This document shows, in pieces, positions 20,482 to 37,157 of a stretch of DNA of 64,000 bases. Positions within the stretch are counted from its first letter, which is position 1; each line of letters begins with the position of its first letter. The notes beneath the pieces are model-generated. The model did not search any database. It worked only from the letters and a program-made list of their open reading frames with translations, and was not told the origin of the DNA. A program made the translations under genes and the position numbers. Source of the DNA: an uncultured bacterium (GTDB lineage Bacteria; Verrucomicrobiota; Kiritimatiellia; CAIKKV01; CAITUY01). The stretch lies in contig CAITUY010000047.1 of NCBI GenBank assembly GCA_903895695.1, forward strand, positions 10,397 through 74,396, written 5' to 3'.

Positions 20482-20580
20482 AGATCTAATTCCAGATTCG
20501 CACCCGTTGAAACGGGGGTATGCGGTTTTCGATCTACGCAAGGCCGTGCGGCCGAGCGGTGTGAGGTGGTAGGCCATGGT
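20479..20580 (-). repeat. truncated copy of the RHS-core 3' leader repeat (MAYHLTPLGRTALRRSKTAYPRFNGCESG…) with no attached CT domain
   Basis: ~90% nucleotide identity to the first ~90 nt of the ten cassette ORFs, including the conserved ctgaccATG start context; it diverges after the GCESG codons into the regulator gene. Confidence 0.7.
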
Positions 20581-20592
20581 TACTGCGTCAGG

Positions 20593-21072: not shown

Positions 21073-21154
21073 TCACGGGCACCCCTGCTCGCGCCGATGT
21101 GACCGGCCCGACCACCCTGCATGTCAAGCCTCTGCGGCAACCTTCATACCGCGA

Positions 21155-21913: not shown

Positions 21914-22108
21914 GGTCGACTATTCTCGTGACGGCAACTGATGGGATCGGGCTGTCCCTGCGACGCTTCGTTCAATCCCTATTCTCTATTCTTGGGCCTT
22001 CCAACCCCCGTACCCCTATCTTCTGTCTTCTCGGGCTGACACTGGCGCCCCATTATTCCACTTTGTCACCCTTGTCAGCACCCGACCCCACTCGCGGGCT
22101 ACACAGTT

Positions 22109-22444
22109 TCACACGAAGACCAACTGAAACAGAAGGAATGCAAGAAGAAGCACCGCAGGGCACAACGGGGATGCCTGCTCGCGGCGATACAGGGACATCA
22201 ACCACGCGAAACTTCCTGCAATGATCGAAACTATGGCGACAACATGGGCAGACGCTCCTGAGTGTATCTCCTTCTCAATGGTCAAGTGCAATTGATTTCG
22301 CTCCACAGAGGCGAGCGTAACGGATCTTGCGGCAAGCAAGGCACCGGCAGAGTCGTGACGTTTGCCTTCAATATCCACGATTATCGCGATCAGCAACAGA
22401 CTACAGGCCACCATGAACAACGGCTTCACGGGTGGGCACCTCAT
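22109..22444 (-). CDS. putative immunity protein (polytopic small membrane protein) for cassette 22441..23139
   Basis: ATGA start/stop overlap with the upstream toxin; 3 predicted TM segments. Confidence 0.45.
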   Translation of the reverse strand: MRCPPVKPLFMVACSLLLIAIIVDIEGKRHDSAGALLAARSVTLASVERNQLHLTIEKEIHSGASAHVVAIVSIIAGSFAWLMSLYRREQASPLCPAVLLLAFLLFQLVFV

Positions 22445-23139
22445 TGGCCAATAAGGGCGTCACCACATGCCTCCTGCGCAGAGACAGCACAGGCTTCACG
22501 TCCCACCCCAATAGGACAGTAATGGTGTGCGATCTCGTGGATCAGCAGAGATGCTAGTCCACTGCTCCCCAATTCCTTGCACTGACTTGCACATACGCCT
22601 ATGCCAAACCCAGGCAGCGTCCAAGTTGGGAAACCCAAAATACACGGAATCATCCAGTCTCCGTGGCACGTGATCGTATATCCCGGTATCCAATCGGTAG
22701 ATCCCCCTCCGCCTCCCGAGAAATCGTGACCGTGATCCTCAAACCATTTCCTGCATTTCCCCTTTGGTATGGCAGCATCGACGATTTCCGCCGCCTGCCT
22801 CACTTCCGGACAGCACTTACAGCCGCCAAATTCATGCAGACCTTCTGGGTCTGTCAGTACAGTCGGTTGATTATGCACGAAGAGATACCGCGGCTCCTGC
22901 GACTGATGCTTGATCCGTTCTCGATCCTCTCGCCGGATTCCCCTGCTTCGCGTTTGCAGAAGTGCCTCATCCCCAATTGGGTCGCTGCTCATCCACCGCC
23001 CCATTCCTGGCGAGAAGAAACGGAAACCAGATTCGCACCCGCTGAGTCGGGGGTAAGCGGTTTTCGGGCTACGTTCGTACGCGTACTCCGGCGAGGTACG
23101 CAAGACCGTGCGTCCGAGGGGTGACAGGTGGTAGGGCAT
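22441..23139 (-). CDS. orphan RHS C-terminal toxin cassette with HExxH (zinc metallopeptidase-like) CT domain
   Basis: Leader MPYHLSPLGRTVLR…(8-aa insertion SPEYAYER)…GCESGFRFFSPGMGRWMSSDPIGD…DPEGL; the CT contains LIHEIAHHYCP (HExxH). Confidence 0.6.
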   Translation of the reverse strand: MPYHLSPLGRTVLRTSPEYAYERSPKTAYPRLSGCESGFRFFSPGMGRWMSSDPIGDEALLQTRSRGIRREDRERIKHQSQEPRYLFVHNQPTVLTDPEGLHEFGGCKCCPEVRQAAEIVDAAIPKGKCRKWFEDHGHDFSGGGGGSTDWIPGYTITCHGDWMIPCILGFPTWTLPGFGIGVCASQCKELGSSGLASLLIHEIAHHYCPIGVGREACAVSAQEACGDALIGQ

Positions 23140-23240
23140 GGTCAGTGCGTCAGTTCATTTGCCGATTATCAAGATGCTGGGTGGTCGGCCCAGGTTCAAT
23201 TCGGGAAGCCCGTCCGGTCATAAATGGTCGGCAACAGTTT

Positions 23241-24062
23241 CTACTCGCCCGCCCCTTTGATCGGGGACTGCTGGCCCGCCTCCCAATCGCCTCCTATCTC
23301 TGGAGGCACTTCAAATGACTCTACCGTTTCATTTGTCGTACCAAGTAGACTGCGAAAACGGTCACGCAACGCGTTCATTCCACCTGTTGTTTGATTGAGG
23401 TGCTCAAGAACCAAAGGCCAACTTACTTTTTCCTCATCCGACTTCGTCCAGTTCGTCACGCCAAGATCGAACACCGAATTCACCGGGTCATACGGTTCGG
23501 TATAGGCACAGAACCAATTTGTCACTGATGTTTGCCGCAAGAACAAGAGATACACCTCCCCCGAAACCTTCAAATGAAGCGAACTTGGAGGGTTGGCAAT
23601 GAGGGCCCTCCGAATCTCATTAGTAACTCCGCGCCTCAGATAGAACATATTTATCGCCTCGCCATCGCGGGCGTTCTTGAGACCTTCGATCACGTCAATC
23701 CTGGCCCTACACACTTCAAACGGGTATCCACGTAGCGTTGGATATGTCAGGAATATGCACCCCCCCGTCGCGCCAAGCCGCGCAACCCTCCCCACGACAA
23801 CTTTGTCTGCCCTCCGCACAAGTGTCTCCGCACTCTCGCGTTGCTCACCCCTCGCAAGTGCATACGAGCCACCCACGCCGTAGCAGACTACCCCAATCAC
23901 GAATGATGCCACCATGTGTCTTAGGCTTGCCATTTCGTCTATCATCGTCCTTGTCACTCTGGCCACATAGACCTGCCGCATGCAGGAAGTCTGTTCGATG
24001 CTAATGATCAGTAAATGCTTCTTGTCACTTGAGTTGGGGAGTTGCCACTGCAGCAGTTCCAT
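23241..24062 (-). CDS. putative immunity protein for cassette 24008..24742 (start likely internal, ~23981 or 23945)
   Basis: Directly downstream of the toxin cassette; hydrophobic segment MVASFVIGVVCYGVGG; the called N-terminus overlaps the toxin's 3' end. Confidence 0.4.
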   Translation of the reverse strand: MELLQWQLPNSSDKKHLLIISIEQTSCMRQVYVARVTRTMIDEMASLRHMVASFVIGVVCYGVGGSYALARGEQRESAETLVRRADKVVVGRVARLGATGGCIFLTYPTLRGYPFEVCRARIDVIEGLKNARDGEAINMFYLRRGVTNEIRRALIANPPSSLHLKVSGEVYLLFLRQTSVTNWFCAYTEPYDPVNSVFDLGVTNWTKSDEEKVSWPLVLEHLNQTTGGMNALRDRFRSLLGTTNETVESFEVPPEIGGDWEAGQQSPIKGAGE

Positions 24063-24742
24063 CTCGCCATCAGTGAGCGGTGGATGACATCACCAGAGGG
24101 AGGCGGCAATATTGGATCTTCATTTACTACCCCAGTGTCTCCACCTGAAGGCGAACGTGGATCGTGTGGCCAGTTTGATGTATCAAGCCTATCGTAGTAG
24201 GCGACAGTACCCGTATAGAGCACGTATCCTTTGGAGCATGGCAACCCTCCCGGATCGCTAAAGGCCCATGTATCACGGGGAGGGTCGTCCATGCTCGCAT
24301 CGACGATAGACCACGCCTCCCAATAGTGTTGGTCGGGATCATTGATGGGGTGACCTTGGCAGTCGGTAATTGAAGACGTCATGGTCATCTCTTGAACGAC
24401 GGAACCCCATAGAGGCGAAGGACCTCGCACTTTCCACAACACTGACCACGAAAAGTGGCCACAGTCATCCGGAATGAACACGAGGTCATCCACCGAAAAG
24501 GACAACGAAGTCCCCCCGAGAATAGTCTGCTTACCCGTTCTATCGCACTTTTGCACACTATTGTTCTCGCAGATTGAGAACAGGTTGAGTCCACCTCTTT
24601 CCCCAATCGGATCTCGCGACGCCCACCGCCCGATCCCCGGCGAGAAGAAACGGAAACCAGATTCGCACCCGGTGAGACGGGGGTATGCGGTTTTCGATCT
24701 ACGCAAGGCCGTGCGTCCGAGGGGTGTCAGGGAGTAGGTCAT
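24008..24742 (-). CDS. orphan RHS C-terminal toxin cassette
   Basis: Leader MTYSLTPLGRTALRRSKTAYPRLTGCESGFRFFSPGIGRWASRDPIGERGGLNLFSI…; unique CT. Confidence 0.65.
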   Translation of the reverse strand: MTYSLTPLGRTALRRSKTAYPRLTGCESGFRFFSPGIGRWASRDPIGERGGLNLFSICENNSVQKCDRTGKQTILGGTSLSFSVDDLVFIPDDCGHFSWSVLWKVRGPSPLWGSVVQEMTMTSSITDCQGHPINDPDQHYWEAWSIVDASMDDPPRDTWAFSDPGGLPCSKGYVLYTGTVAYYDRLDTSNWPHDPRSPSGGDTGVVNEDPILPPPSGDVIHRSLMARWNCCSGNSPTQVTRSIY

Positions 24743-24757
24743 GGTCAGCGCGTCAGT

Positions 24758-25207
24758 TCATTCGTCAATTGTGGAAACATGCCCCTGTGGCTTCCGATCT
24801 CTCAGGTTGACGCTCATCAGATAATCCGTAATTGCGGGATTATCGCCACTCCGGGAGAACTCTTGGACTCGATCCCAATACCTCGATCCTTCTACTATCG
24901 CAAGAAGCGAACTAGCACGTTTCGACTTAGCTTCAATGAGTATCTGATAGACAGGGACAAGCAACAATGTTGCCGTCTCACGTTCACGTCGGTCTTTAGA
25001 ACGCAGTTTCGTCGTCAAATACCGAATTCCAGAATCGTTCACAAATGGGAGCACAAGTCTCGCGACTTCTGCCGCGTCAATCTCACCAGGAGACTTCCTC
25101 AAGGACCAGTAGTCATTCGCTTCTGACATGGCCTTGTCGTATCGGTGGGCCACACACCCTGTCATCACAATCCACAGAGGCAAGAGCAAGAACAGCGTCA
25201 TCTTCTT
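24758..25207 (-). CDS. putative immunity lipoprotein for cassette 25227..25889 (the six-frame ORF extends artefactually to 25546)
   Basis: Probable start MKKMTLFLLLPLWIVMTGC (lipobox LxxC) ~20 nt downstream of the toxin stop. Confidence 0.45.
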   Translation of the reverse strand, partial: KKMTLFLLLPLWIVMTGCVAHRYDKAMSEANDYWSLRKSPGEIDAAEVARLVLPFVNDSGIRYLTTKLRSKDRRERETATLLLVPVYQILIEAKSKRASSLLAIVEGSRYWDRVQEFSRSGDNPAITDYLMSVNLRDRKPQGHVSTIDE

Positions 25208-25226
25208 CATGGGGATTGGGTTCCTA

Positions 25227-25889
25227 CTAATTTGAATTAGTATCGTCCCAATCAGTTCCCAAGTCCTCGAACGGCGTACAGGTTTCGCCTTGGGGGCAAC
25301 ACTGGCTAGACTCACCCGTGGACTCAAAATGGTAGTACTGTTTGCCCCCTGGCCCTTTACCCAGGGAGACCTTAGTTTTGCGGTAGTGCCTCCAGAAGAA
25401 CCAATAACGGAAACTAATCCACATTTCTTTCGCAGGAGACATGCAGATGCATTGGTCCCAACCATACGGAATGCCAGGCCCGCCCGGCGAGATCTCCCCT
25501 CTGAATGATCTTGTCTTGCACTGGCCATCGCCCCCGCAAGTCGCACCCTCGCTTAAGCAGTACCGCTGAAGAGGAGCATTGTTACATGCACAACCGTTAT
25601 CCTGCATCACGAGGCCAAGCAGATCCCAACGAGATTCTCCATTGTTACTGAGAAAATCATAATCATTCGCCCCTCTGGAAACGGTCATGGCGTCAACCCG
25701 TTTGCGGACGCTCTGAGCCACAAATGCAAATTTGAAGAAAGTGTGCTCCCACATCGGATCCCGGCTGCACCAGCGACCCACGCCCGGCGAGAAGAAACGG
25801 AAACCAGATTCGCACCCGTTGAAACGGGGGTATGCGGTTTTCGCGGTACGCAAGGCCGTGCGTCCGAAGGGTGTGAGGGAGTAGCTCAT
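25227..25889 (-). CDS. orphan RHS C-terminal toxin cassette (Cys-rich CT)
   Basis: Leader MSYSLTPFGRTALRTAKTAYPRFNGCESGFRFFSPGVGRWCSRDPMWE…; CT rich in Cys/Gly (…GCACNN…CGGDGQCKT…QCICMSP…CCPQGETC). Confidence 0.6.
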   Translation of the reverse strand: MSYSLTPFGRTALRTAKTAYPRFNGCESGFRFFSPGVGRWCSRDPMWEHTFFKFAFVAQSVRKRVDAMTVSRGANDYDFLSNNGESRWDLLGLVMQDNGCACNNAPLQRYCLSEGATCGGDGQCKTRSFRGEISPGGPGIPYGWDQCICMSPAKEMWISFRYWFFWRHYRKTKVSLGKGPGGKQYYHFESTGESSQCCPQGETCTPFEDLGTDWDDTNSN

Positions 25890-25899
25890 GGTCAGCGCC

Positions 25900-26574
25900 C
25901 TACCAACTTCTCAACCACAGGTTCGATAGGAAATAGTCAGAGACGATCCCGCGTTGCGTGTAGTACACAGCCAAATACCAACCCTCCAATGCAGACGCCC
26001 CTCCCTCCGGATGACGGTTCTGAACGACATCCGCGAAACTCACGCATGCTTTGCCGATCCCCTTTTCCAGGCCATAGTCATCGGCATCAGGACCGAAGAT
26101 CGTCTTGATAGTCGACATACGCGTTCCAACACGCAGCGACTTACTGTCTAGTAGCGAAACACAGAATGCCAGCTTGTCGTGGCGGTTGCTGCATCCCAGG
26201 TACTGCACCTTCAGTATCTCCGCGCTGGTGTCGGCCTTCGTGAGGTGACCGTATACCTCGCCTAAGACGGGCGCCTTACTTACCGCCCTGACGGCATGTA
26301 TGCCTTCCGGACTTTGAACCGTGTCTTGACCCGCTGCATGGCGGGTGAGTGCCGCGCAACCAAAGCCAATCATAATCATGGCCGCAACTCCGCATGCGTC
26401 CAGCGCACACCGAAGTATCGTTGAGGCCAAGTGACCGTCACTATCTCGGTCAGTTGTCATCAGGCGTAGGTATCTGGTGTTTGGGCGTTTGAATGCAGGT
26501 GGCTCCGTATATGGTGGCAGGAAAGCCGGGGGGCTTCGGCATCTTTCTGCATATGGTGAACCATTGCTCTTCAC
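25900..26574 (-). CDS. putative immunity protein for cassette 26450..27235 (start likely internal, ~26460)
   Basis: Downstream partner ORF; signal/TM-like stretch ILRCALDACGVAAMIMIGFGCAAL. Confidence 0.4.
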   Translation of the reverse strand: MKSNGSPYAERCRSPPAFLPPYTEPPAFKRPNTRYLRLMTTDRDSDGHLASTILRCALDACGVAAMIMIGFGCAALTRHAAGQDTVQSPEGIHAVRAVSKAPVLGEVYGHLTKADTSAEILKVQYLGCSNRHDKLAFCVSLLDSKSLRVGTRMSTIKTIFGPDADDYGLEKGIGKACVSFADVVQNRHPEGGASALEGWYLAVYYTQRGIVSDYFLSNLWLRSW

Positions 26575-27235
26575 CAGGTCTGGCCATTTGGTCGGCGTAT
26601 ATGTAATAGCCCTTCTGGATCAGGACGTAGTTCCAGTATGAGTCATTATCGGTTCTTGCACTCGTGATCGCGTGACAACTCACGCCACCATCTGGAAGCT
26701 TCTTCGGTTCCCCATCCTTCCATTTCCCCTGTTTGGCCCACGTCAGGCAGCATGGTTTCGCCACGAGTTTTTTGCATTTCGCGCAGTCTTTTCGCGCATC
26801 GTCCTCGGTAAGCCAACACTTCGTGTCAGGCCAGTTTTCCGGCCAGAACTTGCCATCCCCAGCAATGCAGGTAACCCCAACGCAACCACGATCAAGTTGC
26901 CGCTTTACGTACGCATCCACGCTGACACCGTGGTCTTTTAACCAGTCCTCAAACTGGTCTCGGTCCATGTTGATACACTGATCCACAGGCGGTTCACTCT
27001 GTTGCTCACTGGGTTCTGAGGCCAGCCCGAGACGATCACGATAGCCCAGAGGTTGGTTGCTGAGGCATATGTATCGATTCATGCCATGTCTGGCACTAAT
27101 CGGATCCCTCGACGCCCACCTTCCCATCCCTGGCGAGAAGAAACGGAAACCAGATTCGCACCCGGTGAGACGGGGGTATGCGGTTTTCGATCTACGTAAG
27201 GCCGTGCGTCCGAGAGGTGTGATGGAGTAGGCCAT
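26450..27235 (-). CDS. orphan RHS C-terminal toxin cassette (Lys/Cys-rich CT)
   Basis: Leader MAYSITPLGRTALRRSKTAYPRLTGCESGFRFFSPGMGRWASRDPISARHGMNRYICL…DRLGL. Confidence 0.65.
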   Translation of the reverse strand: MAYSITPLGRTALRRSKTAYPRLTGCESGFRFFSPGMGRWASRDPISARHGMNRYICLSNQPLGYRDRLGLASEPSEQQSEPPVDQCINMDRDQFEDWLKDHGVSVDAYVKRQLDRGCVGVTCIAGDGKFWPENWPDTKCWLTEDDARKDCAKCKKLVAKPCCLTWAKQGKWKDGEPKKLPDGGVSCHAITSARTDNDSYWNYVLIQKGYYIYADQMARPGEEQWFTICRKMPKPPGFPATIYGATCIQTPKHQIPTPDDN

Positions 27236-27296
27236 GGTCAGCGGGTTAGAGCGTTTGCGTCTTGCGAGAATTGGTGCAGTTGCCTGTTGGCTTTAT

Positions 27297-27743
27297 TCAA
27301 TGTTCGACTTCCGCATCACCAAGGCCGGCTCCCGGCCGCTTGGCAGCGACACCAAACAAGCGAAGCAGGCCAATAATCTTGCTGTCGCGGACTACCTCAT
27401 CATCGGCTTCGCCCATAGATAGAACGACTCCACTCAAACTGCTCAGGGCCAAGGCCCAGAAGTCCCTGCCGCGGAGCCCATGAAGCACTTTGTCCTCAAC
27501 AGGAATCGACGCTTTCCCATGCTGAATGTCATCTGCCAGGTACCTGACGAGCGTCTCAGTTGCAGCACCTTTCGTGACCCCTTGCCGAAGCTGGACTGTC
27601 ACATAAAACGCATGGTGCATCACAACGCACCTCTCCCCTGAAAACAAGTCGTGCGGAGCCTGAGGCCTGGCGCTGTAACACCCTCCAAGCAGCAGAGCGA
27701 AGAGCAAAGGCGTGCCTTGCCGCAACAACCTTTGTTGATTCAT
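27297..27743 (-). CDS. putative immunity lipoprotein for cassette 27740..28492
   Basis: ATGA overlap with the toxin stop; lipoprotein signal LLFALLLGGC. Confidence 0.5.
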   Translation of the reverse strand: MNQQRLLRQGTPLLFALLLGGCYSARPQAPHDLFSGERCVVMHHAFYVTVQLRQGVTKGAATETLVRYLADDIQHGKASIPVEDKVLHGLRGRDFWALALSSLSGVVLSMGEADDEVVRDSKIIGLLRLFGVAAKRPGAGLGDAEVEH

Positions 27744-28492
27744 AGCTCATCGACCCCCAGTTGCACGCTGAACCATCCGCGGGGGGTGCCCTTCCACCGC
27801 ATGTATCCTTTCTTCGGTATGCTACTGGCATTCCACGTCGCAGTACCGGCAAAGCCCCACCATGTCTGTACTGATGGTGCCTCTTCGACATAGTCATGCG
27901 CCTGAAACCAATACGTTTGCGGACTAACGGGACGCGTTCGACTCACATCGGCGTTGTGCGGATCATCAGTAAGCCACCATCCTCCGTAGAATCCTGGATT
28001 GGGCTTAGCCGAACCGTAGTCATCAGGCAGGACTATATCGTCATTAGGAGGCGAGTCAGAATCGTCGCGCAACTCTGCGCCTTGGTGCAGATGACAGCCG
28101 CTGACATCGCCCCCTGCGCTATGGGTCACAACCGCCTTGACGCCGACACCGAAATCCCAAAGATACCCTGGCCTATTCGGATCTGTCGGTTGATATTTCA
28201 ACTCTCTCGTTGCGCTTGTCCAAGAGAGGTCGATTCGACAGTTGCCGGGGTCTATCGCACAGATGCAACACGCCTTCCTCAGGCCCAGATAATCTAGCGC
28301 AGTGTCCGGGCAGTTCCTAATGAAGCAAAGCAAGTTGCCTCCGCCTTTCTCGCCGATCGGATCGCGGCTCATCCAGCGTCCGATCCCCGGCGAGAAGAAA
28401 CGGAAACCAGATTCGCACCCGTTGAAACGGGGGTATGCGGTTTTCGATCTACGCAAGGCCGTGCGGCCGAGGGGTGTGAGGGAGTAGGCCAT
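27740..28492 (-). CDS. orphan RHS C-terminal toxin cassette
   Basis: Leader MAYSLTPLGRTALRRSKTAYPRFNGCESGFRFFSPGIGRWMSRDPIGEKGGGNLLCF…DYLGL. Confidence 0.65.
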   Translation of the reverse strand: MAYSLTPLGRTALRRSKTAYPRFNGCESGFRFFSPGIGRWMSRDPIGEKGGGNLLCFIRNCPDTALDYLGLRKACCICAIDPGNCRIDLSWTSATRELKYQPTDPNRPGYLWDFGVGVKAVVTHSAGGDVSGCHLHQGAELRDDSDSPPNDDIVLPDDYGSAKPNPGFYGGWWLTDDPHNADVSRTRPVSPQTYWFQAHDYVEEAPSVQTWWGFAGTATWNASSIPKKGYMRWKGTPRGWFSVQLGVDEL

Positions 28493-28556
28493 GGTCAGCT
28501 ATTCTCGTGGAGGAAACCAATACGATCAGGATGTCCTGCGACGCTGCGCTGAATCC

Positions 28557-29060
28557 TCATTCTGTATTCTTGGGTCTGCCCCGTGACTGCGCTTCTTCTG
28601 AAGCCGCAGCACCAAACCCATTGCCCTCAAGTCCAGGCGCTGACGATGTCACCACAGTGACGATATCGTCTTCCGTTCCGAAAACACGGTCGGGACCCGC
28701 CGATGACACCGTGCAGACATTCTGACGGACTTGGCACCTGAAGGGAGACCCCCACGGATCGGGTAATATGGCTTCCTCACGGGGCATCAGATCGGAGAGG
28801 GACTCGGGCCACTGCCCATGTCGAGCATGGTAGTCCGCCGCCACGTCGCCCAGCCGTTTCACGTAGCGCAGCACGCCTTCTGCTGCCTCTCTATTCCGTT
28901 GCGCCCTGACTGCTCTCACTGCATCGGCACTCCACAACCCAACGAGCCCAATGACCAGACACGCAACTCCGATCAGAAGCACGACTCGGTGTCTATTGAG
29001 CCATAAATGGATGGTTCCGCCCGCAGGGTCTGCGCACGTTTTACTGTCGGCCATAGGCAT
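28557..29060 (-). CDS. putative immunity protein with GspG/type-II-pseudopilin-like fold (degenerate, no GFTLIE motif); six-frame ORF extends to 29198
   Basis: TM helix VVLLIGVACLVIGLVGLW, then …AEGVLRYVKRLGDVAADYHARHGQWPESLSDLMP…LPDPWGSPFRC…SSAGPDRVFGTEDDIV, which parallels the GspG signature (…Y.LDNG.YP…GL.AL…DPWGNPY…S.G.DG..GG.G.DADI). Confidence 0.4.
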   Translation of the reverse strand: MPMADSKTCADPAGGTIHLWLNRHRVVLLIGVACLVIGLVGLWSADAVRAVRAQRNREAAEGVLRYVKRLGDVAADYHARHGQWPESLSDLMPREEAILPDPWGSPFRCQVRQNVCTVSSAGPDRVFGTEDDIVTVVTSSAPGLEGNGFGAAASEEAQSRGRPKNTE

Positions 29061-29814
29061 CGTGTAGCATCCATTCGTCTTCCAGCTCCCCGAACACCGA
29101 GAAACTCGGGTCCTGAAACAAGTTTCTCTTCCATGCATAGAAGTTGAGCCACCGTACCCAGATCCACTTGTTTGCCGGGTTGCCATCAGGCAAAACATTG
29201 AACGTGTAATACTTCGCCATCTTGACCGTCATCTTGCACGACCCCTCACACTCACATCGACCCTGTGAGTCAGCACACCCGCATCGCCATTTACAGTCGG
29301 CGAACAGTGACACCTGCCAGTTCCCCGCGTACGCAAGGCCAAACAACGATACGGCTGCCGGCATTACATCATCGAACACCTCTGCCGAATGCGGTGGTGC
29401 GGGCAATCGGATATTCTCGATTGCGGCGCCCATGCATCGAAACCGTGTTCCCAAAGCCTTTTCTACCGTCAATCGCCAATCCTTCATGTGCCACGACGTC
29501 TTAAGGCGAGAAAGCACGTCGTCTGAAAGTCTCCCGCCTTCTGGGGCGAACGAGAAGTAGTTGATGAACATCTGCCAAGGACCATCGAATGTCCACTCGA
29601 CCAACCCTGCGGGGTCGGCCCTATCCGGCGAGTCATTGGCACAGAAAACATATGCGTCGAGTCCGCCCATCTCCTCAAGCGGATCGCGGCTGATCCAGCG
29701 TCCGAGTCCCGGCGAGAAGAAACGGAAACCAGATTCGCACCCGGCGAGACGGGGGTATGCGGTTTTCGATCTATGCAAGGCCGTGCGGCCGAGGGGTGTC
29801 AGGTGGTAGGGCAT
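29041..29814 (-). CDS. orphan RHS C-terminal toxin cassette (six-frame ORF begins at 29925; conserved start at 29814)
   Basis: Conserved leader begins at the internal Met: MPYHLTPLGRTALHRSKTAYPRLAGCESGFRFFSPGLGRWISRDPLEEMGGLDAYVF…DPAGL; Cys-rich CT (CKWRCGCADSQGRCECEGSCK). Confidence 0.6.
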   Translation of the reverse strand: MPYHLTPLGRTALHRSKTAYPRLAGCESGFRFFSPGLGRWISRDPLEEMGGLDAYVFCANDSPDRADPAGLVEWTFDGPWQMFINYFSFAPEGGRLSDDVLSRLKTSWHMKDWRLTVEKALGTRFRCMGAAIENIRLPAPPHSAEVFDDVMPAAVSLFGLAYAGNWQVSLFADCKWRCGCADSQGRCECEGSCKMTVKMAKYYTFNVLPDGNPANKWIWVRWLNFYAWKRNLFQDPSFSVFGELEDEWMLHDAYGRQ

Positions 29815-30137
29815 GGTGAGGGTCCAGGTTCGTACGGCCAGCGCACGGTTCCCGATCCATATGGTGAGGTTATTACAGCCCCTCGACGGAGGAACACCGT
29901 CGTCTTCCATGCAACGCTGTCCCACTCTGTTGCAGGATGATGGGCACTCAGACTCATGATCCCATTCACATTTTCACCGATAGTCACGCTACCATCGGGA
30001 TCGCCCTCCAACTCGGCCGCATTCGTACCAGGAAACGTTATGCTCTGAACCACTCCATACAGGCGACCCTCTGACATGACGCGGTCACCGACGCAGACAA
30101 CCTCTCCCGTATGATACCGGAAGCAATCGCGCTTCAC
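29799..30137 (-). CDS. putative immunity protein (small beta-rich) for cassette 30134..30847
   Basis: ATGA overlap with the toxin stop; homologous in outline to 30909..31151. Confidence 0.45.
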   Translation of the reverse strand: MKRDCFRYHTGEVVCVGDRVMSEGRLYGVVQSITFPGTNAAELEGDPDGSVTIGENVNGIMSLSAHHPATEWDSVAWKTTVFLRRGAVITSPYGSGTVRWPYEPGPSPCPTT

Positions 30138-30847
30138 GGTGCGACACCTCCGCCAAGGATTGGTTCAACCCAAGGCCCTTCTCCCGGCCACGGCGTATCT
30201 CCACACGTCACATCCAACGCCAATGACTGTCGCTTGCAGGCACATGGTTCTGTCGGGTGCGTCACAGGGAGTTGCACAACATAGGCGTGGTGCGTGTGCG
30301 TGCCCGGACACCCGTGCCCAGCGACAAAACATGTCCTGTTCATTGTGTATCCCGCGAGCGGGATACATGGCAGACAAAACGGCAGATGCGGGACGGTCTT
30401 TGTCTGAGTTACCGTTTGCGGCACGGAGTTCACACCTGTATTCATGCATTGACAGTCCCGTTCCCGGTAAACATCGTATGTCTCGGTATAGGTTCCCGTC
30501 CGCGTGTACACCAAGTATGTCACGCCGCCGGCAATGAGCGTGCCAGCAGCCACCCATGGACCCCATTCCGGCAATGTGACGCCTGCAAGAATCTCAGCAC
30601 AGATCTCCCCTATAGTTGGTATTGCGATTCCCGCCTGGCCCAAGGGATCAAGGAGGAATATGGGGGTGTTCTGAACGAACGCGTACCGGTTGACTCCGCC
30701 ACTCTCCGCAACCGGATCGCGCGACGCCCACCTTCCTAGCCCTGGCGAGAAGAAACGGAAACCAGATTCGCACCCGTTGAAACGGGGGTATGCAGTTTTC
30801 GATCTACGCAAGGCCGTGCGGCCGAGAGGTGTGAGGTGGTAGGCCAT
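30134..30847 (-). CDS. orphan RHS C-terminal toxin cassette (CT with hydrophobic segment; paralogous to 31175..31822)
   Basis: Leader MAYHLTPLGRTALRRSKTAYPRFNGCESGFRFFSPGLGRWASRDPVAESGGVNRYAF…DPLGQ; CT shares CLPCIP…H.H…C.CK…GP…GGG(V/I)AP* with the next cassette. Confidence 0.6.
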   Translation of the reverse strand: MAYHLTPLGRTALRRSKTAYPRFNGCESGFRFFSPGLGRWASRDPVAESGGVNRYAFVQNTPIFLLDPLGQAGIAIPTIGEICAEILAGVTLPEWGPWVAAGTLIAGGVTYLVYTRTGTYTETYDVYRERDCQCMNTGVNSVPQTVTQTKTVPHLPFCLPCIPLAGYTMNRTCFVAGHGCPGTHTHHAYVVQLPVTHPTEPCACKRQSLALDVTCGDTPWPGEGPWVEPILGGGVAP

Positions 30848-30908
30848 GGGTAGCTGCAGGCACCGCGCCCTGCCTGATCGTTCATTGCTGCTTCGCGTGA
30901 TTCATCAC

Positions 30909-31151
30909 TTAGGATTTCGGCCGCTTTGTTAGGCTATGATGGTGCCCAAATGGGTGTAGAACCAAAATGCCGTCCTCATACATGACCAGAAGACCTCCCG
31001 TGTCTTCACAGTCAAATGAGGCCGCCGATTGGGTGCCAGGCATGCATACCGCCTCAACTCGTCCCGGTCTCCCGTCAATCATCACAAGATCTCCGTTCCT
31101 CACAGATTCTTGCGAATCGCCGTATTTCGAACTGAGAGTGTCATCAGGCAT
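30909..31151 (-). CDS. putative immunity protein for cassette 31175..31822 (six-frame ORF extends to 31403 over the toxin 3' end)
   Basis: Likely start MPDDTLSSKYG…; …RNGDLVMIDGRPGRVEAVC… resembles …GEVVCVGDRVMSEGRLYGVV… in 29799..30137. Confidence 0.35.
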   Translation of the reverse strand: MPDDTLSSKYGDSQESVRNGDLVMIDGRPGRVEAVCMPGTQSAASFDCEDTGGLLVMYEDGILVLHPFGHHHSLTKRPKS

Positions 31152-31174
31152 TTCCGTTGCGTTGCTGAATGTTA

Positions 31175-31822
31175 CTAAGGCGCAATGCCTCCGCCCTGAG
31201 CAGGGCCGGCTTCCGGTGCCAAAACCCCAGGCAATGGGTCGGGCAGTACCTCTTTCCAGAAACACTTGCACCCTCCGACTGCCGGACTCTGCAACATCAC
31301 TAGCATGTGGGAATGCGGCGTGGGAATTCCGTTGTGGGCTGGCGAGGGCGGCAAGTCCACGCGATACGCAATGGACCCAACGACTGGTAGGCACGGCAGA
31401 CACCCTTGAGTTCTTCGTTTACAGCGGTCACATCTCTTCATTGCCTCCGCAATACCATCCGCTACGGCGTCCGCGAAACTTGCTGCGGCCGCTGCAATAT
31501 CGTGGAGTGTTTGTTGTCCTGCAGGCGATTGCGCCCAGGCTTCGGCGGTCACACACACCGCAATGGTCCCGATTACCAAGAGTACGACTGCGTCATCCGC
31601 TATTACAATTCGTCCATCCTTGTCGTTCTTATCCGTGGGGTTGTTCGACACGAAGCCATAGAGATTCCGCCCCCCGAGTTCTCCCATAGGATCGCGTGAA
31701 ATCCACCTCCCTGTTCCTGGCGAGAGGAAACGGAAACCAGATTCGCACCCGCTGAGTCGGGGGTATGCGGTTTTCCATCTACGCAAGTCCGTGCGTCCGA
31801 GGGGTGTCAGGTGGTAGGACAT
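31175..31822 (-). CDS. orphan RHS C-terminal toxin cassette (paralogous CT to 30134..30847)
   Basis: Leader MSYHLTPLGRTDLRRWKTAYPRLSGCESGFRFLSPGTGRWISRDPMGELGGRNLYGFVSNNPTDKNDKDG. Confidence 0.6.
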   Translation of the reverse strand: MSYHLTPLGRTDLRRWKTAYPRLSGCESGFRFLSPGTGRWISRDPMGELGGRNLYGFVSNNPTDKNDKDGRIVIADDAVVLLVIGTIAVCVTAEAWAQSPAGQQTLHDIAAAAASFADAVADGIAEAMKRCDRCKRRTQGCLPCLPVVGSIAYRVDLPPSPAHNGIPTPHSHMLVMLQSPAVGGCKCFWKEVLPDPLPGVLAPEAGPAQGGGIAP

Positions 31823-32220
31823 GGTTAGAGGGTAAGATCGTCCAGCGATATCAGTCTTGTTTCAGCGACGTTCTGCGATGCCATTTCGTCCAGCAACTAC
31901 CATCCCGGCCTCGCCCCCGACTGCGGTTCACGCTCCCGCCCCGTAGATTATGCGGCCGGTCGGGGCGCTCACTTCCGCCCCAGCCGCCGACAACTCCACC
32001 AGCCCCAACCACCGTTGAAATGTTCATCCGAACAGGTCCGTCGCGCCGACGCCACAACGATCAGTTCTGTTTAGGGTACGGGAGCGCGGCGGCGGAAAAG
32101 CGGCTGTTTTGTAGTAACCCATGGGACGAAGTCCTTATGGGTGGGATTCTAGGAAAGAGGGGGCACGGAAGAAAGGCAAATCAGGCAAAAAAGTGGGCAA
32201 AAAACGGGGAGGCGGAAACC

Positions 32221-32436
32221 TCAACCCGGCGTCGGAGTTTGGCCCTTGGCCCGGTCGAATATCTCGTCCACCGTCTGCCCGTCGTAGAGGCGCCGGGAGA
32301 CATCCACGTAGTCGGTCGGTTCGCGGTGGATCAGGGTGAGAAACCGAAACGCACCTGTTGCACCCAAGGCCTTGTTGAGGACCTCAATGCCGCTCAGGCG
32401 CAGTTCGTTATCGGTCATGACTTGGCTTGTGCTCAT
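32221..32436 (-). CDS. small protein downstream of the PIN gene, possible antitoxin/partner
   Basis: 71 aa, 5 nt after the PIN-domain ORF on the same strand; no family recognised. Confidence 0.3.
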   Translation of the reverse strand: MSTSQVMTDNELRLSGIEVLNKALGATGAFRFLTLIHREPTDYVDVSRRLYDGQTVDEIFDRAKGQTPTPG

Positions 32437-32440
32437 ATCC

Positions 32441-32938
32441 TCACCATCTCTTCTGCACGTAGTCTACAGGATTAATGACCAGAAGCGCAACCGGCAAACG
32501 GCCAGCCTTGGACACGATCTCGTCATCACAGGTCACAAACCACGCTGCTTTCGCGTGTTCGGCAGCAGCAACGTGCAAGGCATCCTTGGCCGACAGCCCC
32601 GCCACGGCCTGAATCCGAGCCGCGGATATGCGAATGGGTTCTTCTGGGCCTATTCGGACGCGGCAGATTGCGGCAAGGCGGACGACTTCCTGTGCACGGT
32701 CAACGAAAGGACACACCCGGTTCTCGTCCTCGTGCATAAACGACCACGCCAATTCCACCTCACCGTTCTCGGCATCCTCGAAGATCTTCTCGCAGGCTTC
32801 CGCCTCCAAACGGATACGATGCTGCCGGGAGTCGTCAAACCCCCGCTGGAAGCAGTTGTAGTCGAGATAGATGAGTTCCGCCATGTCGAGTACCCCGTGC
32901 CGAACGTGGTTACGATAGTATGGACTCTTCCTGGTCAC
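32441..32938 (-). CDS. PIN-domain protein (VapC-like ribonuclease candidate); likely start MAELIYLDYN (~32881)
   Basis: N-terminal MAELIYLDYNCF… and acidic residues spaced as in PIN/VapC folds. Confidence 0.45.
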   Translation of the reverse strand: MTRKSPYYRNHVRHGVLDMAELIYLDYNCFQRGFDDSRQHRIRLEAEACEKIFEDAENGEVELAWSFMHEDENRVCPFVDRAQEVVRLAAICRVRIGPEEPIRISAARIQAVAGLSAKDALHVAAAEHAKAAWFVTCDDEIVSKAGRLPVALLVINPVDYVQKRW

Positions 32939-33896
32939 AAGCCTCTTTCTCCCTTGGATGGCACTTGCGGTGGGTCTCTTTGAGGTCGGTGATGGTGAGC
33001 TTGGCGTAGTGCTTGAGCGTCTCCAGCGACTCGTGGCCGAGCAGTTCCTTCACGTGGTACATGCCGGCCCCGGCCCGCAACAGCTCGGTCGTGCAACTGC
33101 GGCGGAAAGTGTGGGGCGTGACGTTGACGTCGATGCGGGCCTGTTCGGTCAGCCGGTGCACAAGTTTGAGGAAGACGCCGTACTTGACCCGCTCGCCCGC
33201 CGCGGTGACGAAGAGGGCCTGCTCGTCGCCCGTCGGGAATGCTGGCCTGACTCCTTTGACGTACCCTTCGAGGTAGTGCATGGCCGTGCGGCCGATCGGC
33301 ACCATGCGTTCCTTCTGGCCCTTGCCTTTGACGCGGGCCAGCCCGTGGGCGTAGTCGACGTCGCCCAGGTCCAGCCCCAGCAGTTCCGAGACCCGCGCCC
33401 CGCTCGAATAGACCAGTTCCAGCATGGCCCGGTTGCGGTAGCCCTCCGCCCCGTTGGTCGGCACCACGTCCAGCAGCCGCCGCACTTGCTCGTGGGTCAG
33501 CACGCTGCCCGGCAGGGTCTTGGGCTCCTTCACGTACTCGATGCCGTCGGACAACCGCGACTGGATATGGCCCTGCACGGCCAGGTACTTGAGGAACGAG
33601 CGCAGTTCCTGGACTTGCTTGTTGATGGTGCGGGGGTTGAGCGGCCGCCCCTTGCGGGTCCGCCGCCGGGACAAATGTCCCTGCCAGCGCTGGAGGTGGC
33701 TGGCCCGCAACAGGTCGGGCGAGTACACGCCCACCGTCACCCCGAGCCACTGCGCCCAGTTCCGCAGGTCGTTGTTGGCCTGCTTGCGCGTCCAGGCGCT
33801 GAAGTTGAGCGCGCCCAGGTGCCGCACGTATTCGTCCAGTAGTTCGAGGAAAGTCGTCATAGTCGCATCCTCACGATCCCGGTTTGCTCCGGGCAT
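32910..33896 (-). CDS. tyrosine site-specific recombinase (XerC/D-phage integrase family)
   Basis: C-terminal catalytic signature …VTPHTFRRSCTTELLRAGAGMYHVKELLGHESLETLKHYAKL (R…HxxR…Y); N-terminal SAM-like core-binding domain. Confidence 0.8.
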   Translation of the reverse strand: MPGANRDREDATMTTFLELLDEYVRHLGALNFSAWTRKQANNDLRNWAQWLGVTVGVYSPDLLRASHLQRWQGHLSRRRTRKGRPLNPRTINKQVQELRSFLKYLAVQGHIQSRLSDGIEYVKEPKTLPGSVLTHEQVRRLLDVVPTNGAEGYRNRAMLELVYSSGARVSELLGLDLGDVDYAHGLARVKGKGQKERMVPIGRTAMHYLEGYVKGVRPAFPTGDEQALFVTAAGERVKYGVFLKLVHRLTEQARIDVNVTPHTFRRSCTTELLRAGAGMYHVKELLGHESLETLKHYAKLTITDLKETHRKCHPREKEACDQEESILS

Positions 33897-34827
33897 GAAC
33901 CGCCTGCAATTCCGTGATCGTCAGGCGCAGGTACTGGGACAGGTGACTGAACGAGGCATGGCCGAGGAGCATCTGCAGGTCCACCGGGTGGGCGCCGCGG
34001 CGCAACATGTGCGTGGCGCAGGCCCGCCGCAAGCTGTGCGGCGTGATGCGCGTCTGCACGCCCGAGTCGCGTCCATGCCTCACGATGCCGAGCCGGATGG
34101 CCACATATCCGAGCGGCTTTCCATACTGCGTCACCCAGAGCTCAGGCGGCCTGCCGCCCGCGGCCGTCCTCTTCCCGACCTCGGCCTCGTACCGCCGCAG
34201 CCACTCCACCGCCTGGGCGCCCAGCGGCAGGACCCGCTCCCGCTCGCCCTTGCCCATCACGCGCACGGTCCCGTTCACCATGTCCACGTCCCGGACCATA
34301 AGCCGGGACAGTTCCTCGACGCGCATGCCCGTGCCGTAGGCCGTCTCCAGGATGGTCCGATCGCGCAGTCCCGTGTAGGTCGTGGTGTCCGGCGTCGCCA
34401 GCAGGCTCGTCATCTCCTCCTCGGTAGGCACCGGCATGATGGGCGACTGAATCTTGCGGATCACGATGCCCTCCGCCGGGTTGCAGAACACTTCCTGCGT
34501 CTGCTCCAGCCAGCGGAAGAACTGCTTGATGGCACGGATGAAAACCTCCACCGAGGCGGGCTTCCACTGCCGGTCCACCATGCCGGCGCGGTATTCCTCG
34601 ATGTCCGAGCGCGTCACGTCCATGGCCCGCACGATGCCCTTACCATCCAGGAACGCGCAGAACCGTTCCAGCGCCTGCGTATAGATCTCGACGGTCCGCC
34701 GGCTGTACCGCCGTGAGGCCACGCGCTCGGCGTAACGCCTGACGAGTACGGCTACACGACTACTGCTACGACTATGTGTTGCATCCATATGCGCTCCCCG
34801 CACCACTTTCGACCAGGTTATTGCCAT
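33871..34827 (-). CDS. tyrosine site-specific recombinase (second, overlapping the first)
   Basis: …ITPHSLRRACATHMLRRGAHPVDLQMLLGHASFSHLSQYLRLT; overlaps the downstream recombinase by ~25 nt, consistent with translational coupling. Confidence 0.8.
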   Translation of the reverse strand: MAITWSKVVRGAHMDATHSRSSSRVAVLVRRYAERVASRRYSRRTVEIYTQALERFCAFLDGKGIVRAMDVTRSDIEEYRAGMVDRQWKPASVEVFIRAIKQFFRWLEQTQEVFCNPAEGIVIRKIQSPIMPVPTEEEMTSLLATPDTTTYTGLRDRTILETAYGTGMRVEELSRLMVRDVDMVNGTVRVMGKGERERVLPLGAQAVEWLRRYEAEVGKRTAAGGRPPELWVTQYGKPLGYVAIRLGIVRHGRDSGVQTRITPHSLRRACATHMLRRGAHPVDLQMLLGHASFSHLSQYLRLTITELQAVHARSKPGS

Positions 34828-37147
34828 CCGCCTGCATTTGAGGCACTTGGACCGATTCCACGGGGTGGCCAGGTGCTGACCACCCTGTGACCACCCCCGC
34901 CGCTGCCATCGAGGTGGCCTGTCCGTCGTACGCCAGGCGGTAACGGTAGGTGAGCCCGACGCGCCCGGCCACGGTCAGGACGAACTCCATCTCGACCAAC
35001 TGCTTGAGGTAACGGCGCACGCGGAGATGGGCCCAGCCGGTGAACTCGCGGATCTCCCGGCGGGAGAACACCACGTCGCCGGGCACTTCCACGCCATCGC
35101 GCCCCTCCCGCCGCTGTTGCTCGATCCTGCCGGCCACCATGCGTTCGATGTGCATCAGCAGGTCCAGGCTCACCCGGTTGAGGTCGTCCAGGCTCTTGCC
35201 CAGGATCTCCCGCGCCAGCCCGTCGGCAACGGCCAGGTCCGCCGCTTCCACCTCGATGTAGTCCCGGCCCTCGTCCTGCCGGACCTGCTTCGACATCTGC
35301 CGCAGGAACGCCACGGCCCGGATCAGGTTCAGGTACTTAGGCTGGTCGCGCCGGCTCTGCAGTCGGTCGTCGCCGTAGCAGAGCTGTTCGGCGAACGGGT
35401 TGACCACCTTGACGGGTTTCAACAGCCGCTGGAAGTTGCGGTGTAACCGCAGCGTCGCCTCACGCCCCCCGCGCTCCTTCTCGCCATCGAGGGTTTGGCG
35501 CCTGCGTTGGCAGGCGAGGATCGCCCGGGTCTGCTCCCGGCTCTCGTCCACACTCGTTACGAAGAACCGACTGCGGGTCTCGGGGTCGGTCTCGGGATCG
35601 GTCGTTGTGATGAAGACCGCGGTCGGGCCTTCCACGCGGTTCACCGCGGTCGTGAGCTTGCCGGTGGCGAAGTCCTTGACGGTCACCTCGATCACCAGTT
35701 CCCCGGCCGAGATCAAGTTGCGGATCGCGTACGTGGCGTCCTCCGCCCCCGCCCCTTCCTCCAAGGCGAGGATCTTGTGCTTGAGGCTCTGCCGGGCCTT
35801 GTAGAAGAGCGCCTTACCGGACAGGCTCGTCAGCTTGACCGAGTCCTCCGGCGGACAGAACGCGAGCGTCGCGTCCTGCAGCGCCGACTTGCCGGCGCCC
35901 GAACTGCTTAGGATCAGCACGGACAGCGGATGGTCGGTCTTCCGGCTGACGGCGGCCAGGTAGCAGAGCAACTTGTTGACCTCCTCGCCCACGAGCCCGC
36001 ACGCGGCGTAGTCGGCGACGATACGTTCGATCAGGTCCGGGCTGCGCCCGAAGGCTTCCGCCTCCCGGCGCTCCTCCTCCGGGATGTCGACCGTCTCACC
36101 CGCGTCCGCGGCCGACGCAGACGGCACGTGGGTTTCGCAACAGCGGATCAGCCGCACCAGGTCCGCCTCGATAGCCTCGGTGGTCTCCTCGAAAAACCGG
36201 CACAGATCCTGGGCCAGCGTTTTGCGGGCCTTGGCCGAGTAGAAGTCGAGCGTGTCCACGTGCAGTCGGCCGGCGTGCTCTGTCCTGAGCGTCGCTCGCA
36301 GCCGCCTTGGTCCCTTGTCGATCCCGCGCAACTCATAGCGGCGGCGGTCGAGCCGCACGCGGAACCCGTCGGGTATGGGCTCAGTCGCCGAGTCCGGCCC
36401 GGCTGACGGCTGCCCGGTGTCGAATTCGGCCAGGGCCGCATCCACGAGCGCGGTGACGCGCGGGAGTCCGTCGCGCAGGAGGACGGCATTGAGCGGCTCG
36501 GCAAGCGGACAGGCCCGGATGGCGACCGGCAATCCCGAGAAGGTTTCCCGCAGTGAGTCGGCATTGACGGCCAGGCACGCGAGTCGCTGTACGCCGCTCG
36601 CGCGGATCGCCTGGCGGTCGCGCGCGGTGAGACGGCCCTCCGGCACGGCGACGGCGTTGGGATACCCCGCCTTCTGGAGCGTGAGAGCGTCGAGGATGTC
36701 CAGCGTCGCGAGCACCTCCCCATGGGTGCGGAACACGGGTGCGTTCCAGAGCCCCGTGGCGACGCCCGGCAGGTGGACCGCCTTCCCGGTCGCCATGCAA
36801 AGGCCCGCAAGCCCGATCGCCAAGCCCTCGACATCCGCCAGCGGGAAGACGACGCAGTCGCGGAACCGCTCCTTGCCGGACTCATCGAGGATGTTCATCG
36901 ACCTGAGTACGTCGCGGATGCCGCCCTGGCGTGGCAGCGTCCCGACAAGTTTCCCCGTGGCGCAGCCGATCCGGAACTGACCGGCCAGGTCGGAATCGTT
37001 CAGGCCATGGCGGGCAAGAAAGCCCGGCCCTTCCGGCTCCTTGGTCAGCGTCTCGTGGTAGAACCCCGCGACCTTCTCCCACAGGGCCGCCTGCTCACAA
37101 AGCGGACCTCCCTCCGGCCTTCGTGGCATGTCCGTCCTCCCGTTCAT
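34772..37147 (-). CDS. large P-loop NTPase, putative TOPRIM primase/replication-type protein of the integrative element (six-frame ORF extends to 37273)
   Basis: Walker A LSSSGAGKSALQDATL; N-terminal region with a possible TOPRIM-like E…DxD arrangement (ADVEG…DILDALTL); operonic with a Zn-ribbon protein and two tyrosine recombinases. Confidence 0.4.
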   Translation of the reverse strand: MNGRTDMPRRPEGGPLCEQAALWEKVAGFYHETLTKEPEGPGFLARHGLNDSDLAGQFRIGCATGKLVGTLPRQGGIRDVLRSMNILDESGKERFRDCVVFPLADVEGLAIGLAGLCMATGKAVHLPGVATGLWNAPVFRTHGEVLATLDILDALTLQKAGYPNAVAVPEGRLTARDRQAIRASGVQRLACLAVNADSLRETFSGLPVAIRACPLAEPLNAVLLRDGLPRVTALVDAALAEFDTGQPSAGPDSATEPIPDGFRVRLDRRRYELRGIDKGPRRLRATLRTEHAGRLHVDTLDFYSAKARKTLAQDLCRFFEETTEAIEADLVRLIRCCETHVPSASAADAGETVDIPEEERREAEAFGRSPDLIERIVADYAACGLVGEEVNKLLCYLAAVSRKTDHPLSVLILSSSGAGKSALQDATLAFCPPEDSVKLTSLSGKALFYKARQSLKHKILALEEGAGAEDATYAIRNLISAGELVIEVTVKDFATGKLTTAVNRVEGPTAVFITTTDPETDPETRSRFFVTSVDESREQTRAILACQRRRQTLDGEKERGGREATLRLHRNFQRLLKPVKVVNPFAEQLCYGDDRLQSRRDQPKYLNLIRAVAFLRQMSKQVRQDEGRDYIEVEAADLAVADGLAREILGKSLDDLNRVSLDLLMHIERMVAGRIEQQRREGRDGVEVPGDVVFSRREIREFTGWAHLRVRRYLKQLVEMEFVLTVAGRVGLTYRYRLAYDGQATSMAAAGVVTGWSAPGHPVESVQVPQMQADGNNLVESGAGSAYGCNT

Positions 37148-37157
37148 GTCGCCAACC

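Follow-up and report, generated by a model that had tools for sequence, protein, structure and literature searches.

The 64,000-nucleotide stretch of Kiritimatiellia DNA analysed here (the window) carries, at 28557..29060 on the minus strand, an open reading frame (ORF) of 167 amino acids, ORF1, which directly follows the toxin tip of an orphan RHS cassette. We consider it fairly probable that ORF1 is an immunity protein, anchored in the inner membrane and facing the periplasm, which binds its cognate RHS toxin tip and for which the fold of GspG, the major pseudopilin of the T2SS (type II secretion system), has been recruited. The immunity role is deduced from gene order and from co-variation of the gene with its toxin. 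The pairing is kept in three other lineages, and 67 other loci with GspG-like domains have no RHS core; immunity is favoured for these two reasons.

ORF1 was first singled out, together with a second frame at 37967..38467 (ORF2), in a sequence-only reading of the window. Both ORFs exist at these coordinates; they lie on the minus strand, and the plus-strand frames at the same places are riddled with stops. Every motif that had been quoted for them was found, and the N-terminal transmembrane (TM) helix claimed for both was located at residues 26-43 of ORF1 and residues 10-31 of ORF2. ORF1 reads MPMADSK...HLWLNRHRVVLLIGVACLVIGLVGLW...DYHARHGQWPESLSDLMPREEAILPDPWGSPFRCQVRQNVCTVSSAGPDRVFGTEDDIVTVV... 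and includes the segments DYHARHGQWPESLSDLMP and ILPDPWGSPFRCQVRQNVCTVSSAGPDRVFGTEDDIV; its stop-to-stop frame reaches upstream as far as 29198. Following an N-terminal tail there is a single N-terminal hydrophobic helix, the TM/alpha-1 helix (28932..28985, minus strand), which is continued by a long alpha-1C helix ending C-terminally in HGQWPESLSDL. The beta module of GspG comes after it, with DPWG at 28749..28760 and SSAGPDRVFGTEDDIV at 28659..28706 (both minus strand).

The relatives of ORF1 emerged from an exhaustive phmmer scan with ORF1 over a library of 1.84 billion representative proteins; a word-indexed homology search returned ORF1 itself only. The exhaustive scan placed the similarity well outside what chance would give: 480 proteins matched at E<=1e-3, of which 10 reached E<=1e-10, and the matches included the canonical pseudopilins P0026, P0078 and P0081 with GVTLIE, GFTLIE or GLTLME leaders. 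Direct family scans with ORF1 stayed below threshold, both for PF08334 (T2SSG; E=0.094, 13.2 bits against a cut-off of 21 bits) and for TIGR01710 (E=0.13, 12.3 bits against 88.85 bits), and the link to GspG therefore needs profile or transitive evidence. Such evidence was obtained with an alignment of 23 sequences including ORF1 (A1), the source of the A1 profile and hidden Markov model (HMM). Sixteen of its 23 members match Pfam T2SSG and four match N_methyl, and residues D101, W103, G122, D124 and D131 of ORF1 are invariant in it. When the A1 profile was compared with the PDB, GspG structures were matched (5wda, E=1e-17; 3g20, E=2.9e-14; 1t92, E=6.7e-11), and type IV pilins were matched over the N-terminal helix. 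By these profile comparisons ORF1 is homologous to GspG, and its predicted fold is GspG-like, with a long N-terminal helix and a small beta-sheet bearing DPWG and GPDx..GTxDDI loops. A check of ORF1 for absence of a pilin-like alpha-beta fold was run and the GspG-like fold was not refuted. Thus the GspG-like body that had been proposed for both ORFs stands for ORF1, by profile, homology and predicted fold, and for ORF2 it is reduced to a local match of about 38 columns.

The prepilin signal is missing throughout. The motif G[FVLIM][ST]L[ILV]E is absent from ORF1, from ORF2 and from ORF3, a third GspG-like partner described below, and none of the three matches Pfam N_methyl at E<=1, in agreement with the earlier remark that ORF1 and ORF2 have no GFTLIE cleavage motif. 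No prepilin motif was found in any stop-to-stop ORF of at least 50 amino acids in the six frames of the window, and it is also absent from all five members of the ORF1 subfamily. ORF1 has none of the class III signal peptide residues Gly-1, Phe+1 and Glu+5, which are required for prepilin-peptidase processing and for filament assembly of pseudopilins. Since it lacks prepilin-peptidase processing and Glu5, ORF1 would be unable to enter a pseudopilus.

ORF1 is the partner gene of cassette 3 in a ten-copy array of orphan RHS cassettes. The cassette that precedes it (29041..29814, minus strand) consists of a conserved leader, MPYHLTPLGRTALHRSKTAYPRLAGCESG, the final 45 positions of the RHS core (FFSPGLGRWISRDP...DPAGL; positions 32-76 of the RHS-associated core model TIGR03696, E=4.6e-10) and a Cys-rich toxin body of 186 amino acids; as a mechanical ORF it runs on to 29925. 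The start of ORF1 overlaps the stop of this toxin by 20 nt on the same strand, and the translation of ORF1 is coupled to that of the toxin ORF.

The closest relatives of ORF1 are P0006, P0007, P0020 and P0038, which are 27-33% identical to it (alignment A2) and share 22 invariant columns with it. The remaining members of this subfamily do not match Pfam T2SSG at E<=1. Because 22 columns are invariant across the five members, ORF1 is, as judged from this conservation, a maintained protein and not a decaying pseudopilin; the label 'degenerate' that it had been given is misleading. An ORF1-type toxin precedes the ORF1 relatives in three other lineages, with toxin identities of 38-44%. P0007 and P0157 (loci L009 and L085) are preceded by an RHS protein of 1835 amino acids with a toxin tip 44% identical to that of the window (E=5e-67), P0020 (L058) by an orphan toxin cassette from a separate array whose leader differs (39% identical, E=5e-55), and P0038 (L011) by a toxin fragment (38% identical to the window toxin). 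P0007 is 33% identical to ORF1 over the A2 alignment and 42% over 112 residues by tblastn, and P0006 overlaps its upstream gene by 4 nt. The RHS gene copy at L009 is split into two ORFs, and Pfam RHS_repeat and TEN_YD-shell were found on it. When the toxin bodies and partners of the window were compared by tblastn with 88 loci, the loci with the ORF1-type toxin were precisely those with the ORF1 subfamily, without exception, and none of the 67 other loci collected for a GspG-like domain was matched by the toxin body. Both for the ORF1 type and for the ORF2 type, the partners diverge faster than their toxins.

The full-length RHS protein with an ORF1-type toxin at L085 (4543..10050, plus strand) bears both a Sec signal peptide and a linker rich in Thr/Ser; about 120 residues that follow the signal peptide are almost pure Thr/Ser. 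A protein with Laminin_G_3, Calx-beta and TSP3 domains is encoded upstream of this gene. No PAAR or VgrG was seen at the locus, and for this reason export by way of a T6SS (type VI secretion system) is improbable; the L085 RHS protein is probably not a T6SS substrate.

ORF2 (37967..38467, minus strand) encodes 166 amino acids, reading MPSPSSVIKSLLSVFVFAVLCWFAIGQCLYIRRER...LGELCRQYEEAHGVRPASLSDLLP..., with the motif segment QYEEAHGVRPASLSDLLP. Its TM helix is followed by RRER, by a helix with the LGELCRQYEEAHGVRPASLSDLLP motif and by a C-terminal half with five conserved Cys. From the RRER behind the helix, a membrane orientation contrary to that proposed for ORF1 is predicted. It is the partner of a lone orphan RHS cassette (38470..39270, minus strand; TIGR03696 E=1.7e-6), and it starts 3 nt after the toxin stop. 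This cassette has an RHS core end (FFSPGTGRWMSRDP...YDPFGL) and a toxin body of 203 amino acids with 10 Cys and no His; it does not have the leader common to the ten-copy array (alignment A4), and a PDB sequence search with its toxin body gave no match. Four homologues of ORF2 were found at 45-75% identity. Three were checked at the DNA level; each begins 0-3 nt after a toxin, and these toxins are 84% (L001), 71% (L080) and 70% (L082) identical to that of 38470..39270.

The likeness of ORF2 to GspG is limited to the membrane helix, the next helix and the G..P.SL.DL loop. BLASTP aligned only 24 residues of ORF2 with ORF1 (E=2e-5), hhalign against the GspG profile gave 31 columns at a probability of 77% when ORF2 alone was used and, family to family, 38 columns at 95%, and the A1 HMM matched ORF2 at E=7e-4 over profile positions 20-81. 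ORF2 thus appears to be a conserved partner of a third toxin that would have only the membrane helix and the helix-end motif in common with the GspG scaffold. It is an even question whether ORF2 has a pseudopilin fold at all; on the alternative, a membrane helix and a short helix-end motif are shared, as a module or by convergence, and the C-terminal domain is a different one.

ORF3 (20593..21072, minus strand; 159 amino acids) is a GspG-like partner that was absent from the sequence-only reading, and it matches the GspG profile better than ORF2 does. It has a TM helix and a GspG-like module, FVDGWNRPIVCVRRNGEVVLMSVGGDGRGGTPDDVVIVV, which reads DGWNRP...GGDGRGGTPDDVV, and no prepilin motif. 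Its cassette lies at 21155..21913 on the minus strand (TIGR03696 E=1.5e-10). ORF3 was aligned with ORF1 by BLASTP over 39 amino acids (E=3e-5), matched the A1 profile in hhalign at a probability of 91-92%, was matched by the A1 HMM at E=1.6e-7 over profile positions 20-129, and reached up to 39.7 bits in phmmer against the ORF1 hit set. Three of the ten partner ORFs of the window (ORF1, ORF2 and ORF3) match the GspG profile; the other seven have a probability of 0.6% or less. When the A1 HMM was run over 685 six-frame ORFs, the next best match after these three had E=1.8. No BLASTP similarity was found among the toxin bodies paired with ORF1, ORF2 and ORF3. ORF3 may represent a second, more divergent use of the GspG scaffold, for an unrelated toxin. 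At L001, a lipoprotein-like protein of 123 amino acids (2719..3090, plus strand), the partner of another RHS cassette, contains ...VERGTYPMSLP..., a stretch that recalls the helix-end motif of pilins; this protein, too, may be derived from the GspG scaffold.

GspG domains without a prepilin signal are common among the 149 best matches of ORF1. Proteins of up to 200 amino acids carry a prepilin-like motif in 10 of 77 cases, and a TM-like segment is present in 42 of the other 67; the 72 longer proteins have no prepilin motif (0/72), and many contain 2-4 tandem GspG-like domains. The 46 genome loci collected for generic GspG-like domains encode canonical pseudopilins, small anchored proteins and proteins of about 2000 amino acids. 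An RHS core motif was found at none of these 46 loci and is absent from 21 of 22 metagenome loci, and P0014 and P0037, close matches outside the ORF1 subfamily, have no toxin link. A general rule that a non-prepilin GspG domain denotes immunity was considered and rejected on the 67 GspG-like loci without an RHS core motif.

The large GspG-domain proteins form a side observation. Proteins of about 2000 amino acids with 1-4 tandem GspG-like domains (DPWG...GPD..DDF) were seen at L015-L017, L020, L021, L023-L027, L031, L067, L068 and L078, mostly in metagenome-assembled genomes labelled Acidobacteriota. A CxEQ thioester-like motif, as in alpha-2-macroglobulins, was noticed by eye in the proteins of L067, L068 and L078. 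If they are alpha-2-macroglobulin-like, they would be another non-pilus use of the GspG domain, in a periplasmic defence protein.

ORF1 shows the features by which immunity genes are recognised: it lies directly downstream of the toxin on the same strand and overlaps it, it co-varies with the toxin type, and it is present in orphan cassettes. In the proposed mechanism, ORF1 would stay a bitopic inner-membrane protein, permanently anchored, with its GspG-like head in the periplasm, and this head would bind the Cys-rich toxin tip and make it harmless while the tip crosses the cell envelope or comes back into it. Several observations weigh against this reading. The ORF1 subfamily is small, with five sequences, four of them with DNA context. 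The toxin body paired with ORF1 has no Pfam or PDB match. Arginines are present on both sides of the ORF1 helix and the positive-inside rule is ambiguous on its orientation; the periplasmic orientation is taken from the homology to GspG, as GspG's own orientation. Most non-prepilin GspG-domain proteins have no toxin link, and hence the GspG fold alone is no predictor of immunity. Finally, Rhs families of Xanthomonas and Ralstonia have been described as 'associated with the gspG gene', with T2SS export predicted (bioRxiv 10.1101/2025.05.08.652813).

This last report would fit a role of the GspG-like gene in secretion, as a pseudopilin-type helper that exports a Sec-dependent RHS protein across the outer membrane by a T2SS-like route, and the Sec signal of the full-length RHS protein with an ORF1-type toxin does imply the need for an outer-membrane route. 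We regard such a role as unlikely. ORF1 and its subfamily are without Gly-1, Phe+1 and Glu+5, no canonical pseudopilin motif exists within the window, and the gene follows the type of toxin tip, not the RHS N-terminus. It occurs, moreover, in orphan cassettes that have no RHS shell, and the other cassettes of the same array have entirely different partners. The view that ORF1 and ORF2 are unrelated small membrane proteins which merely sit beside toxin cassettes, as the sequence-only reading had allowed, draws on the many GspG-domain proteins without a prepilin motif that are found in unrelated contexts. It is contradicted by the toxin-partner pairs conserved in other lineages and is very improbable: for ORF1 the pairing persists at 27-33% identity of the partners and 38-44% identity of the toxins, with a full-length RHS gene and in two orphan arrays whose leaders differ, for ORF2 it persists at identities of 45-75% (partners) and 70-84% (toxins), and toxin and partner are joined by start/stop overlaps or by gaps of 0-3 nt. 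The partner relationship that had been put forward for both ORFs was accordingly found conserved elsewhere.

A decoy would be a special form of immunity. Here the machinery of the pseudopilus or of type IV pili would be the target of the toxins or their way in, and the partners would act as copies of the target that do not assemble and that sequester the toxin. Partners with GspG-like segments in three cassettes with mutually unrelated toxins speak for it, as does the retention in ORF1 of the conserved GspG surface loops with their five invariant residues. It is quite unlikely all the same, since one target for three unrelated toxins is unparsimonious; ORF2 and ORF3 each retain only part of the fold signal, and a generic periplasmic binding scaffold accounts for the same data. 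If true, it would be the first target-mimic immunity made from a filament subunit of a secretion system; in a milder version, which is the reading preferred here, the ORF1 family would be the first immunity family with a pseudopilin fold. These considerations favour ORF1 as an anchored immunity protein whose GspG-like head would serve to bind the toxin.

The array to which the ORF1 cassette belongs spans 20437..31866 on the minus strand and contains a repeat of about 135-200 nt in 10 copies, with spacings of 975-1630 nt. Nine copies are complete toxin-plus-partner cassettes, and the last is truncated and fused to a GntR-type regulator. Conservation of the repeat begins about 8 nt ahead of the ATG and extends through about 135 nt, with about 90% nucleotide identity (A4). 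Each copy contributes the ATG of the cassette, the leader (MAYSLTPLGRTALRRSKTAYPRFNGCESG) and then the RHS core end FRFFSPGxGRWxSRDP...DPxGL. Integron-like cassettes were considered; the repeat was found to be the coding 5' end of each RHS cassette. The leader has 26 amino acids and no match to the RHS core model, every orphan cassette has its own ATG, and the core segment corresponds to positions 32-76 of TIGR03696. This model matched the five window cassettes scanned, four of them above the cut-off; the cassette of ORF2 reached 28.4 bits against 32.5. The core end is followed by a variable Cys-rich toxin body of 127-203 amino acids and then by the small partner ORF, and the toxin bodies of the window have 5-11 Cys each. 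By eye, two of the ten partner ORFs are lipoprotein-like, five have a single N-terminal anchor (ORF1-ORF3 included), one is polytopic and two are soluble; that most partners carry lipoprotein or membrane-anchor signals is consistent with toxins acting in the envelope. No full-length RHS gene was found among the large window ORFs scanned, and the RHS core motifs in six frames are those of orphan cassettes only; no window cassette is attached to an RHS/YD-repeat shell.

Only one pair of toxins in the array is related (30134..30847 and 31175..31822, 32% identity). Their partners (29799..30137 and 30909..31403, both minus strand) are also related, at 34% identity over 64 amino acids (E=3e-4); they look soluble, share a GD.VM..GR.G.V motif and belong to no known family. 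The toxin body of cassette 22441..23139 (minus strand) contains LLIHEIAHH, an HExxH motif, which suggests a putative zinc metallopeptidase; it has no Pfam match, and neither has its partner (22109..22444, minus strand), a small polytopic membrane protein. The final copy of the repeat is cut after about 95 nt and continues in frame into a GntR + Peripla_BP_3 regulator (a 393-amino-acid ORF; 19396..20647, minus strand; domains from a Pfam scan of 19396..20577), the true start of which is probably the internal MHSMPFEVSK. The fused regulator marks the downstream edge of the array. Arrays in L058 and L001 have other leaders, again uniform inside each array.

A mobile-element-like block (32221..37574, minus strand) lies between the ORF2 cassette and the ten-copy array. 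It contains, all on the minus strand, a Cys-rich small ORF (37158..37574), a primase-like ORF of 833 amino acids (34772..37273), two overlapping tyrosine recombinases (33871..34827 and 32910..33896), a PIN-domain ORF (32441..32938; Pfam E=9.7e-6) and an ORF of 71 amino acids (32221..32436). A 'recombinase in trio' element was considered for 32441..34827 and rejected because the third ORF encodes a PIN domain protein. The block may be an inserted integrative element or an array-associated recombinase region of the kind known from rAID, discussed below. Among the large ORFs scanned, the flanks of the window encode GH2, GH95, GH106, heparinase-like and SASA enzymes.

Polymorphic toxins have immunity proteins of very great diversity, most of them without annotation, and ORF1 adds to these a recognisable fold, that of the T2SS major pseudopilin minus its assembly signal. 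In the literature searched (GspG-like, T2SSG with Rhs, pilin-like with immunity), no paper was found that reports RHS immunity with a pseudopilin fold, as the sequence-only reading had supposed, and the main text of the 2012 catalogue of polymorphic-toxin immunity proteins does not mention pilin, GspG or PulG. Within this literature a GspG fold in the immunity position thus appears to be unreported. For non-prepilin GspG domains, common as they are, one genomic role at least would be defined; the ORF1 subfamily goes entirely unnoticed by annotation pipelines. The toxin body of 29041..29814 and ORF1 constitute a concrete, testable pair, and the data suggest the cell envelope as the site of action for the Sec-dependent RHS toxins of polysaccharide-degrading freshwater bacteria.

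Arrays of orphan rhs-CT/immunity cassettes downstream of Rhs or CDI genes have reportedly been described by Jackson in 2009, Poole in 2011 and Koskiniemi in 2014. The array in the window is like them in its tandem cassettes, in which a core piece is followed by a toxin tip that varies and, downstream, by a small partner, and in both the retained core sequence provides homology for recombination. It is unlike them in that no full-length RHS gene was found among the large window ORFs, in that each cassette has its own ATG and a 26-amino-acid leader from outside the core, and in that the array adjoins two tyrosine recombinases, a primase-like gene and a PIN gene. The recombinase-associated arrays of orphan immunity genes in Bacteroidales, rAID, said to have been described by Ross and colleagues in 2019, likewise consist of toxin-remnant/immunity cassettes with repeats between them and tyrosine recombinase genes beside them. 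In the window, unlike rAID, the toxin tips look complete, and the recombinases lie in a primase-like/PIN block that resembles a separate integrated element.

ORF1 and GspG have a fold type in common, an alpha-1 helix on a small beta-sheet with DPWG and GPDG..DDI loops. GspG proper has a class III signal peptide and Glu5, whereas ORF1 has neither and fails the curated score cut-offs; ORF1 also has about 25 extra N-terminal residues and a C-terminal tail of about 30 residues. GspG is encoded in a gsp operon together with the secretin, the ATPase, the platform protein and the minor pseudopilins, while ORF1 is coupled to an RHS toxin tip; its neighbours in the window, where part of the small ORFs was scanned, are RHS toxin cassettes, recombinases and glycoside hydrolases, and no gsp operon was seen among them. 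The Tsi, Tai and Tli classes of T6SS immunity proteins are periplasmic or membrane-anchored and protect against envelope-acting effectors. ORF1 is like them in its small size, its gene position directly behind the toxin, its predicted exposure to the periplasm and its occurrence as one partner per toxin type; we know of no protein of these classes with a pilin fold.

For the gene neighbourhood, the one pertinent paper in the literature searched describes the physical linkage of Rhs families in Xanthomonas and Ralstonia to a gene annotated as gspG (bioRxiv 10.1101/2025.05.08.652813). By its description, that link is defined by the N-terminal family of the Rhs protein and read as T2SS export. 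ORF1, in contrast, follows the toxin tip and co-varies with it, carries no prepilin signal and occurs in orphan cassettes. Thus, gspG next to rhs is not always evidence for T2SS export, and the ORF1 case advises caution where the two genes are found together.
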